Shown: positions 27,503 through 28,645, counted from the first letter of the stretch. The stretch: 64,000 nt of DNA from Eledone cirrhosa (GCA_964016885.1 OZ024741.1:93062001-93126000), one strand, 5' to 3'. Numbers and translations: made by a program. The notes: a model not told the origin generated them from the letters alone.

Positions 27503-28645
27503 ATGGCTAACCAGCAAAAATCCAAACAGAACTGGTCTGATAATGAAATCGACATTCTAATAAACACATGGCATTGCCTTTCCCAAACTGAAGACATACA
27601 TGCTTCATCTCTGAACGACATTGCTAAACGTACAGTTCAATTTTTGAAAACTCGATCTGAACAACAGATTCAAAATAAATTAAAGCAAATCGAAATTGCT
27701 TTTAAATTAATCAATAAACATTTGGATAAACTACGGTGTGTTTTCTCTTCGAATGCTGTCCAGCAACAACAACAACAGCAGCTACAACAGCAACAACAAC
27801 AACAGCTACAACAACAACATCAACAACAGCAACAACAACAACGACAACAACAGTGTGAACCACTCCTTGATTCATCAACAATGGCCGATCTACTAAATGA
27901 AACTATTGACCCCCCAGTAGCCTCTGTCTCACAGCATGAAACGCCACATCCTTTCTCTGGCCCAGCAGTCCAATCATCACCACTGCCAACATCTCTGCCT
28001 ACTACTACTACTACTACTACAACATTTTTGTCTACTGCTATGTCAAGGAATTTACCTTCTAATACCAGAACAAGAACTCTCCCTCCCACAGTCCACAAAG
28101 GTCGTCAAATCCTACCCAAACCATCATCTACACCTCTCACAACACCCACACCCACATACCCACCCACTCGAAACCCCATCATTTGCCGCTACTCTCTACG
28201 CTATAGAATATGTACGGATAGTGGCTGCAAATTCACCCATTTACCTAGGACAAAACGATCTATCCCCACAAACAGCCACCACCATAATACATACTCTAAT
28301 TTAACACCAACACAACCACCAATAACTCAAACAAGGAATCCACAAATCTGCCGTTTTTCCCTGCGAGACAGATTGTGTTTAGACCGGGATTGTCCCTTTA
28401 CCCATCTCCCGGGGACCCGTCGGATAAATGAAAATAAAATTAAAAATAAAAGCAAAAACAAAAACCATAACCTACATAAAAATAACCACTACCACAGTCA
28501 CCAACAGTCTTCTAAACAGGAAACTTCTTCCTCTTTTTTAGCCATAATGAATCTGGCAAAAGAACTGGAAAAAAACATTCGAGCTATCACCCAGCACCAC
28601 CCTCCACTATCACCCCACTGCACAAACTCCCATTGCTGCCATTAA
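27503..28645 (+). CDS. LINE ORF1: Myb/SANT-like N-terminus, polyQ/polyT linker, two CCCH zinc fingers
   Basis: NWSDNEIDILINTW...RSEQQIQNKLKQIEIAF; CRYSLRYRICTDSGCKFTH and CRFSLRDRLCLDRDCPFTH (C-x8-C-x4-C-x3-H). Confidence 0.8.
   Translation: MANQQKSKQNWSDNEIDILINTWHCLSQTEDIHASSLNDIAKRTVQFLKTRSEQQIQNKLKQIEIAFKLINKHLDKLRCVFSSNAVQQQQQQQLQQQQQQQLQQQHQQQQQQQRQQQCEPLLDSSTMADLLNETIDPPVASVSQHETPHPFSGPAVQSSPLPTSLPTTTTTTTTFLSTAMSRNLPSNTRTRTLPPTVHKGRQILPKPSSTPLTTPTPTYPPTRNPIICRYSLRYRICTDSGCKFTHLPRTKRSIPTNSHHHNTYSNLTPTQPPITQTRNPQICRFSLRDRLCLDRDCPFTHLPGTRRINENKIKNKSKNKNHNLHKNNHYHSHQQSSKQETSSSFLAIMNLAKELEKNIRAITQHHPPLSPHCTNSHCCH

Follow-up and report, generated by a model that had tools for sequence, protein, structure and literature searches.

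The window, by which we mean the whole 64-kb stretch of Eledone cirrhosa DNA that was analysed, is repeat-dense and carries long (TA)n tracts, two families of APE-RT LINEs (A and B below) and elements that we take, from their motifs, to be RTE-like and Penelope-like. Family A, presumably CR1/L2-like by the same kind of evidence, is present as one copy without long direct repeats in a self-BLAST, and its features are as follows, numbered from the first base of the window.

27068..31729, plus strand: non-LTR retrotransposon of family A, APE-RT, near full length, with an approximate 5' boundary
27503..28645, plus strand: ORF1, 380 aa, from ATG 27503 to the stop TAA at 28643-28645
27527..27724, plus strand: Myb/SANT-like domain, ORF1 residues 9-74 (PF13837, E=6e-5), common to the ORF1 of family B
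27764..27853, plus strand: polyglutamine tract encoded by a CAA/CAG repeat
28184..28405, plus strand: two CCCH-type zinc fingers (28184-28240 and 28349-28405), read from the sequence, with weak Pfam CCCH matches (E about 0.01)
28513..28515, plus strand: TAA, the last stop in the ORF2 (-1) frame
28516..28645, plus strand: ORF1/ORF2 overlap of 130 nt, dual-coding past the heptamer
28516..30810, plus strand: 5' part of ORF2, comprising a low-complexity leader, the endonuclease and the first half of the RT
28534..28540, plus strand: T TTT TTA, the main candidate for a slippery heptamer, read in phase by ORF1 and with G as the next base
28570..28576, plus strand: A AAA AAC, the other canonical heptamer in phase with ORF1, also within the overlap
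30636..31643, plus strand: 3' part of ORF2, in a different frame

The family A ORF2 contains an endonuclease (PF14529/PF03372) and then an RT (PF00078), both above cut-off as in APE-type LINEs, and the element lacks LTRs, lies between (TA)n tracts and ends in a short tandem repeat (two ~10-nt repeats at 31710-31729). Self-BLAST and domain searches found no LTRs, protease or integrase for it, which places it outside the LTR/retrovirus class of gag-pol elements. A 14-nt inverted copy of the tail repeat sits at its own 5' junction (27065-27078; tail at about 31718-31731), possibly a remnant of an oppositely oriented insertion or a by-product of integration. The copy is broken, with ORF2 changing frame inside the RT between 30639 and 30669, and a single broken copy cannot by itself prove that its ORF1/ORF2 junction is in the original state.

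From its N-terminus, ORF1 reads as a Myb/SANT-like region, polyglutamine, the two CCCH fingers, a basic linker and a tail made of x-F-L and a helix-like stretch. The Myb-like domain named by the sequence-only reading is borne out as a resemblance: the PF13837 match scores 23.8 bits, below the curated cut-off of 27, the region matches its family B counterpart at E=8e-6, and the ESM Atlas returned only Myb-like leads for residues 1-88, all below 0.9. A homologue search with ORF1 found none among 8,000 scored candidates, residues 40-330 of ORF2 recovered 3 proteins, and tblastn of the endonuclease against plasmids and phages gave no match. The A and B ORF2s are ~37% identical, and their ORF1s have the Myb/SANT-like N-terminus and CCCH fingers in common. 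An APE-RT ORF2 with a modular ORF1 is the arrangement of the Jockey-superfamily ORF1 types I-V; the Myb/SANT-like plus CCCH combination (27503-28405; 47155-46555 in family B) is not among the types in the survey of that superfamily by term search, in which CCCH, Myb, frameshift, slippery and overlap each returned 0 (PMC4120745, Metcalfe and Casane 2014).

Elsewhere in the window, (TA)n tracts flank the copies of families A and B and the RTE-like copies alike (27068-31729, 36120-41003, 43171-48063, 50085-54049, 59021-61341), which suggests shared microsatellite targeting. An RTE-like element on the minus strand (53120-53557 and 50449-53133) has a PHD-like cysteine cluster after its RT and the start of its endonuclease in a separate frame, and Penelope-like RT and GIY-YIG-like ORFs of at least 2 families occur at 21999-23315 (+), 56808-58277 (-) and 61160-64000 (+).

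The junction between the two family A ORFs had been described, from the sequence alone, as a phased slippery site in front of an ORF2 that is open in the -1 frame and has no start codon of its own, and each of these elements is present. ORF1 codons TCT TTT TTA GCC set T TTT TTA in phase at Ser-Phe-Leu; the -1 frame is that of ORF2, opens at 28516, 18 nt upstream of the heptamer, and continues for 764 codons without a stop into the endonuclease; and the first ATG in this frame lies at 28957, past endonuclease motif I (LLN, 28708) and the ETH and GG motifs. Two properties of a canonical -1 signal thus coincide, an in-phase X XXY YYZ and an open downstream -1 ORF without its own start. Both canonical in-phase heptamers of ORF1 fall inside the 130-nt overlap, against 0 in the 345 codons outside it, and the A AAA AAC at 28570 competes with T TTT TTA as the candidate slip site. 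When the ORF1 protein was kept and its codons were redrawn from the element's own usage (20,000 draws), 1.4% had a heptamer at Ser-Phe-Leu and 27% an open -1 frame, with the two together in 0.4%.

Family B occurs as a tandem pair on the minus strand, 99.55% identical over 4.9 kb, and since the two copies are not independent we counted them once. They lie within a ~7.2-kb tandem duplication (35834-50084) that also includes part of an RTE-like element and could be a recent event or an assembly haplotype artefact.

39336..39350, minus strand: family B copy 1 junction, identical to that of copy 2, with AAT TTT TTA G at 39342-39336
43246..46293, minus strand: ORF2 of family B copy 2, open for 1015 codons, with its first ATG (46176) past endonuclease motif I
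46388..46402, minus strand: family B copy 2 junction, a TAG (46402-46400) and overlapping heptamers
46400..47155, minus strand: family B copy 2 ORF1, 251 aa up to an apparently premature TAG, beyond which conservation in frame continues

Two heptamers overlap at this junction, A AAT TTT (46397-46391) and T TTT TTA (46394-46388), in the context AAA AAT TTT TTA G. As the sequence-only reading had it, they stand behind a TAG, and ORF2 does not follow in the -1 frame, which closes at 46208, but in a frame shifted by one more base. A -2 shift as the source of this register was rejected, with stops in that frame at 46389, 46386, 46359 and 46296. The ORF1 of family B gave no usable match in the ESM Atlas and one protein in a homologue search, P0004 of Octopus vulgaris (53% identical), the only named relative found. 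Codon-aware alignment of P0004 to family B DNA shows three net +1 indels relative to B. Of the minimal mismatches in the two segments that are shifted, 16/24 and 8/9 are at wobble positions of the B ORF1 frame, which identifies that frame as the constrained one on both sides of the TAG. By this comparison the TAG reads as a lesion, P0004 implying a sense codon at its position, so that the earlier suspicion of defective copies is upheld for the stop. By its position and sign, the third indel (46305-46300) would bring ORF2 into the -1 frame, and it weakly suggests that the one-base offset is also a defect, weakly because P0004 is itself decayed and has two other indels. T TTT TTA is not preserved in this relative, in which KKFCG stands at the place of the EKFFS of B; A AAT TTT may have survived in P0004.

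Relatives at the DNA level were collected by scanning prokaryotic genome contigs with the full ORF2 alignment, which confirmed 382 of 453 pattern matches and yielded 80 loci (L001-L080), all contaminating eukaryotic LINEs, contigs of which are present in many prokaryotic assemblies. Because the scan was based on the full ORF2 alignment, most of the 80 are distant (about 30% identity). The 5' end of the endonuclease is included in 41/80, in register 0 to an upstream ORF in 12, -1 in 11, +1 in 9 and with none in 9. In the 11 loci of the -1 class the upstream ORF has at least 100 codons and the endonuclease lies in its -1 frame; L010 (a copy of L009), L011 (a foreign insert) and L080 (no overlap) were left out, and the remaining 8 together with the junction in the window make 9. 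Their overlaps contain 6 canonical heptamers, where 0.94 were expected (P=4e-4) if they were as frequent there as in the remainder of these ORF1s (7 in 2,474 codons). A heptamer lies within 21 nt of the opening of the ORF2 frame in 5/9 junctions vs 0.2 expected (P=2.5e-6, with the 21-nt window chosen after inspection). Setting family A aside, a canonical heptamer occupies this position in 4/8, and one more locus has a near-canonical one (L034: T TTT TTG, in a 181-nt overlap).

These junctions span different kinds of ORF1. L003, whose ORF1 has two CCCH fingers and reads KTFLEM, has T TTT TTA G at 9 nt past the opening of the ORF2 frame, a 199-nt overlap and no ATG ahead of the endonuclease; L002, with a PHD-like domain where the Myb-like domain stands in family A, has A AAA AAC at 21 nt; and the corresponding sites are T TTA AAC TAG at 18 nt in L009 and T TTT TTA G at 21 nt in L022, two loci with esterase ORF1s (a type known from the Jockey superfamily) unrelated to the CCCH type. 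As esterase and CCCH ORF1s both come with a heptamer, the shared feature is one of nucleotides and not of protein. In L002 and L022 the heptamer is accompanied by an ATG that precedes the endonuclease; L005, L030 and L035 have -1 overlaps with no heptamer in them, and L035 also lacks an ATG. L016, a sister of L009, has T TTA AAC TAG equally far from the opening, with the register off by one base. This sequence closes ORF1 in three loci (L009:3635-3644, L010:4800-4809, L016:4816-4825), a coronavirus-type heptamer directly before the stop.

Other arrangements at the ORF1/ORF2 boundary occur among the 80 loci. Ten have a single in-frame stop just ahead of the ORF2 frame (L048:1475, L075:1523, L077:1228, L004:353, L076:1230, L026:617, L008:2652, L025:16, L044:1099, L047:946; L004 and L076 are near-identical), after a long ORF1 in 9/10 and with no ATG before the endonuclease. 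Their stop contexts include TGA CTA (L048, L075), TGA CTC, TGA CAA and TAG/TAA GAT, UGA-C being a leaky stop context, and we regard the ten as candidates for stop-codon readthrough. A +1 group (L006, L007, L032, L039, L054, L072) has overlaps of 14-95 nt, 3/6 without an ATG before the endonuclease. L042, L061, L066, L071, L073 and protein P0053 have 2A-like motifs of the (D/N)V(E/Q/H)xNPGP type in the leaders of single long ORF2s, some followed by a PHD-like finger, a pattern that agrees with described 2A-bearing LINEs.

Protein relatives provide a separate view of the junction, since T TTT TTA read in the -1 frame gives FF plus a residue whose codon begins with A (FFS in both A and B). A profile of four endonuclease domains was searched against 1.84 billion representatives and the best 150 hits were listed; among 153 proteins in which the endonuclease was matched, 40 have at least 20 aa of leader before the domain. 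FF occurs in 9/40 of these leaders. The residue after it, in each of the 10 runs, is R (5), I (3) or S (2), and the runs lie 38-144 residues ahead of the domain. Within-sequence shuffles produced FF[R/S/I] in a mean of 1.3 and a maximum of 6, so that 0 of 10,000 reached 9. FF is the most over-represented dipeptide of the leaders (13 vs 0.83), and inside ORF2 bodies the residue after it is mixed. All nine FF leaders are among the 23 of at least 40 aa, 14 of which have no FF, an absence partly expected because most leaders begin at a predicted Met that may lie past the site. In a quick maximum-likelihood tree, in which many protein rows are endonuclease only and no named references are included, the FF rows are spread through a 32-row clade (SH-aLRT 100) with A, B, L001 and L002, the latter two being the only loci that group there. 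The protein P0063 has an ORF1-like zinc finger in one frame with the endonuclease and no FF, possibly as a naturally fused or deleted variant. P0024 was rejected as a natural fusion and looks like a spliced gene-model artefact.

As the sequence-only reading had also reported, no downstream stimulatory structure was found. Neither family A heptamer is followed by a hairpin above shuffles (z +0.7 to -0.5) or by an H-type pseudoknot, and the same checks gave no stem-loop or pseudoknot at the 5-9 nt downstream of the site where a canonical signal has one. The junctions of B, L002 and L003 likewise have no 3' structure above shuffles; shuffled sequences fold as well as the 4-bp GCCA/TGGC hairpin next to the A heptamer and the long hairpin that follows the B site. 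L022 has a clear 3' hairpin (z -2.4 to -2.5), L034 a weak one (z -1.95 in one of two windows) and L009 a doubtful pseudoknot with a long loop, and Rfam gave 0 matches in the window. The family A junction is gag-pol-like by its geometry, with no stimulator detected, and is at most a candidate for a full canonical signal. The earlier proposal of a gag-pol-like -1 frameshift accordingly gains from the recurrence of heptamers at the same place in relatives, esterase ORF1s included, and from the FF[R/S/I] leaders, and loses on stimulatory structure, on the mixed registers of the 41 loci, on the ATGs of L002 and L022 and on the -1 overlaps that have no heptamer.

Three other accounts of the junction were weighed against these observations. 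In the first, ribosomes would terminate at TAA 28643 and restart at a nearby non-AUG codon to make a separate ORF2 protein, the heptamer being no more than the codons of a conserved x-F-L. Termination-reinitiation is established for SART1, where it uses UAAUG (PMC3894237), and an AUG-independent form is considered likely for mammalian L1 in a recoding review (PMC5009743). In family A the TAA is followed by CAA and the ORF2 frame has no ATG before 28957, which is not the SART1 arrangement; the stop nevertheless lies 62 nt ahead of motif I with near-cognate codons alongside (CTG 28618, TTG 28633, CTG 28636, ATT 28657), so that a restart would give a whole ORF2. The lack of a stimulator also suits this account, as does the recurrence of F-L and a helix-like stretch in the ORF1 tails of A, B, L003 and L034. 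It leaves unexplained why the -1 frame is open for 42-71 codons upstream of the ORF1 stop in A, L002, L003 and L034 (P 0.002-0.02 each), why the x-F-L codons of A, L003, L034 and L022 contain T TTT TT (a synonymous redraw gives this in 1-6% for each), and why heptamers appear in esterase-type elements. Moreover, in L003 and L034, whose ORF2s are intact (970 and 963 codons), the ORF1 stop lies past motif I, so that reinitiation after it would truncate the enzyme. We judge reinitiation unlikely, if still worth serious consideration.

A second account makes the junction a product of decay or assembly: the active element would have one fused ORF or an ORF2 with its own ATG, an indel or a lost ATG would have created the present state, and the heptamer would be a chance occurrence in AT-rich DNA. 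The copy is indeed broken elsewhere, TTTTTTA occurs 32 times on both strands of the window, family B is out of register, and P0063 joins a zinc finger and an endonuclease in a single frame without FF. Frame 0 of ORF1 nonetheless continues past the heptamer into a tail that resembles the tails of L003 and L034, independent elements with intact ORF2s in which this geometry recurs, and the enrichment of heptamers in overlaps and of FF in leaders speaks against chance; this origin seems to us quite improbable. The third, transcriptional slippage on the T6-T7 run, in which an extra U in some transcripts would fuse the frames in RNA, needs no downstream RNA structure and suits the T runs at most sites (A, B, L003, L022, L034 and the FF leaders), yet we give it very little weight because runs of 6-7 T are short for polymerase slippage, T TTA AAC (L009, L016) and A AAA AAC (L002) fit X XXY YYZ tRNA re-pairing and not a long homopolymer, and edited RNA would give fused genomic copies, none of which is evident among the -1-class junctions.

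We therefore favour programmed -1 ribosomal frameshifting that would produce an ORF1-ORF2 fusion in family A, with a probability of roughly 0.7; the relatives support a signal over chance. Ribosomes would start at the ORF1 AUG at 27503, and most would end the 380-aa ORF1 protein at TAA 28643, while a small minority would shift to the -1 frame at U UUU UUA (28534-28540), or perhaps at A AAA AAC (28570), and read on through a low-complexity linker of ~55 aa into the APE-RT. In an intact copy the predicted fusion would be about 1,380 aa long; it would lack the C-terminal tail of ORF1, and its endonuclease would be preceded by the Myb-like domain and the two CCCH fingers. As no protease domain was found in the element, it would presumably not cleave itself. 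Since no stimulator was seen, the predicted slippage, on whichever heptamer, is probably of low efficiency, which would suit a LINE that needs little ORF2 protein and would set a high ORF1:ORF2 ratio, like that of gag to gag-pol.

The nearest parallel in layout is HIV-1 gag-pol, in which a -1 overlap leads into an RT ORF without its own start and the upstream nucleic-acid-binding protein is made in excess. Family A has the identical heptamer, also followed by G, the -1 overlap, the start-less RT ORF and, by prediction, an upstream nucleic-acid-binding protein in excess; unlike HIV-1, it is a non-LTR element with an APE endonuclease, no protease or integrase domain found and no detected stem-loop, and its ORF1 is Myb-like plus CCCH and not capsid or CCHC. 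Among LINEs, the TRE elements of Dictyostelium belong to the L1 group. Family A resembles TRE5-A and TRE3-A in being an APE-RT LINE with a -1 ORF2, whereas those are amoebal and target tRNA genes and the elements described here are CR1/L2-like with a recurrent canonical heptamer. U_UUU_UUA is named as the HIV site, as the sequence-only reading had stated, and A_AAA_AAC and U_UUA_AAC are placed among the most shifty heptamers, in PMC5009743. The ORF2 of TRE5-A and TRE3-A is said to require a -1 frameshift in a figure legend of a review, which gives no slip site or assay there (PMC5911963). Because -1 frameshifting has thus already been asserted for TRE LINEs, the novelty is less than the earlier reading implied: the mechanism is known and the variant is new.

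SART1 and mammalian L1 likewise draw low-level ORF2 from one bicistronic LINE RNA (PMC3894237, PMC5009743); theirs is described as a separate protein, with stop and start adjacent or spaced, in contrast to the 130-nt -1 overlap without an AUG in family A. The 2A/StopGo recoding of CR1, L2, Crack and Ingi LINEs, which belong to the same broad group, presented in PMC3708506 as elongation-phase control of ORF2 output, splits one ORF into two products, whereas the proposed frameshift joins two ORFs into one. Recoding cases cited for non-LTR elements in the relevant section of PMC5009743 are only HeT-A gag frameshifting, TART and L1 reinitiation; for Paramecium LINEs, +1 frameshifting, reinitiation or readthrough is suggested in a passage of PMC5405496. 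Passages of PMC10294476, PMC1925062 and PMC5006619 hold no junction information. A literature search, with older subscription papers and Repbase notes outside its scope, found no slippery heptamer described at a CR1/L2-group ORF1/ORF2 junction.

A broader reading is that -1 frameshifting is a widespread and unrecognised route to ORF2 in CR1/L2-group LINEs, used by at least 3 lineages with unrelated ORF1s (Myb/PHD plus CCCH; esterase), working at U UUU UUA, U UUA AAC or A AAA AAC mostly without an RNA stimulator and yielding a covalent fusion, while sister lineages use readthrough or 2A at the same junction. We advance this tentatively, at a little under even odds.

How the second ORF of LINEs is translated is treated as an open question in PMC3894237, and the accepted view, as given in PMC3708506, has ORF1 and ORF2 made as separate proteins. 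In the present group the question lends itself to a direct test, since the 7-nt site can be altered with the ORF1 protein left intact. If the frameshift is real, ORF2 proteins of the clade are mis-annotated, since predictions from an internal Met lose catalytic motifs; junctions that look like those of 'frameshifted pseudogenes' would be intact; and non-LTR and LTR retroelements would have gag-pol-style control of stoichiometry in common. The recoding field, too, would have an interest in a frameshift that operates without a 3' structure. Should the broader reading hold, the functional ORF2 protein of these LINEs would be an analogue of gag-pol, and through its ORF1 part it could be tethered to its own RNA or to (TA)n targets.
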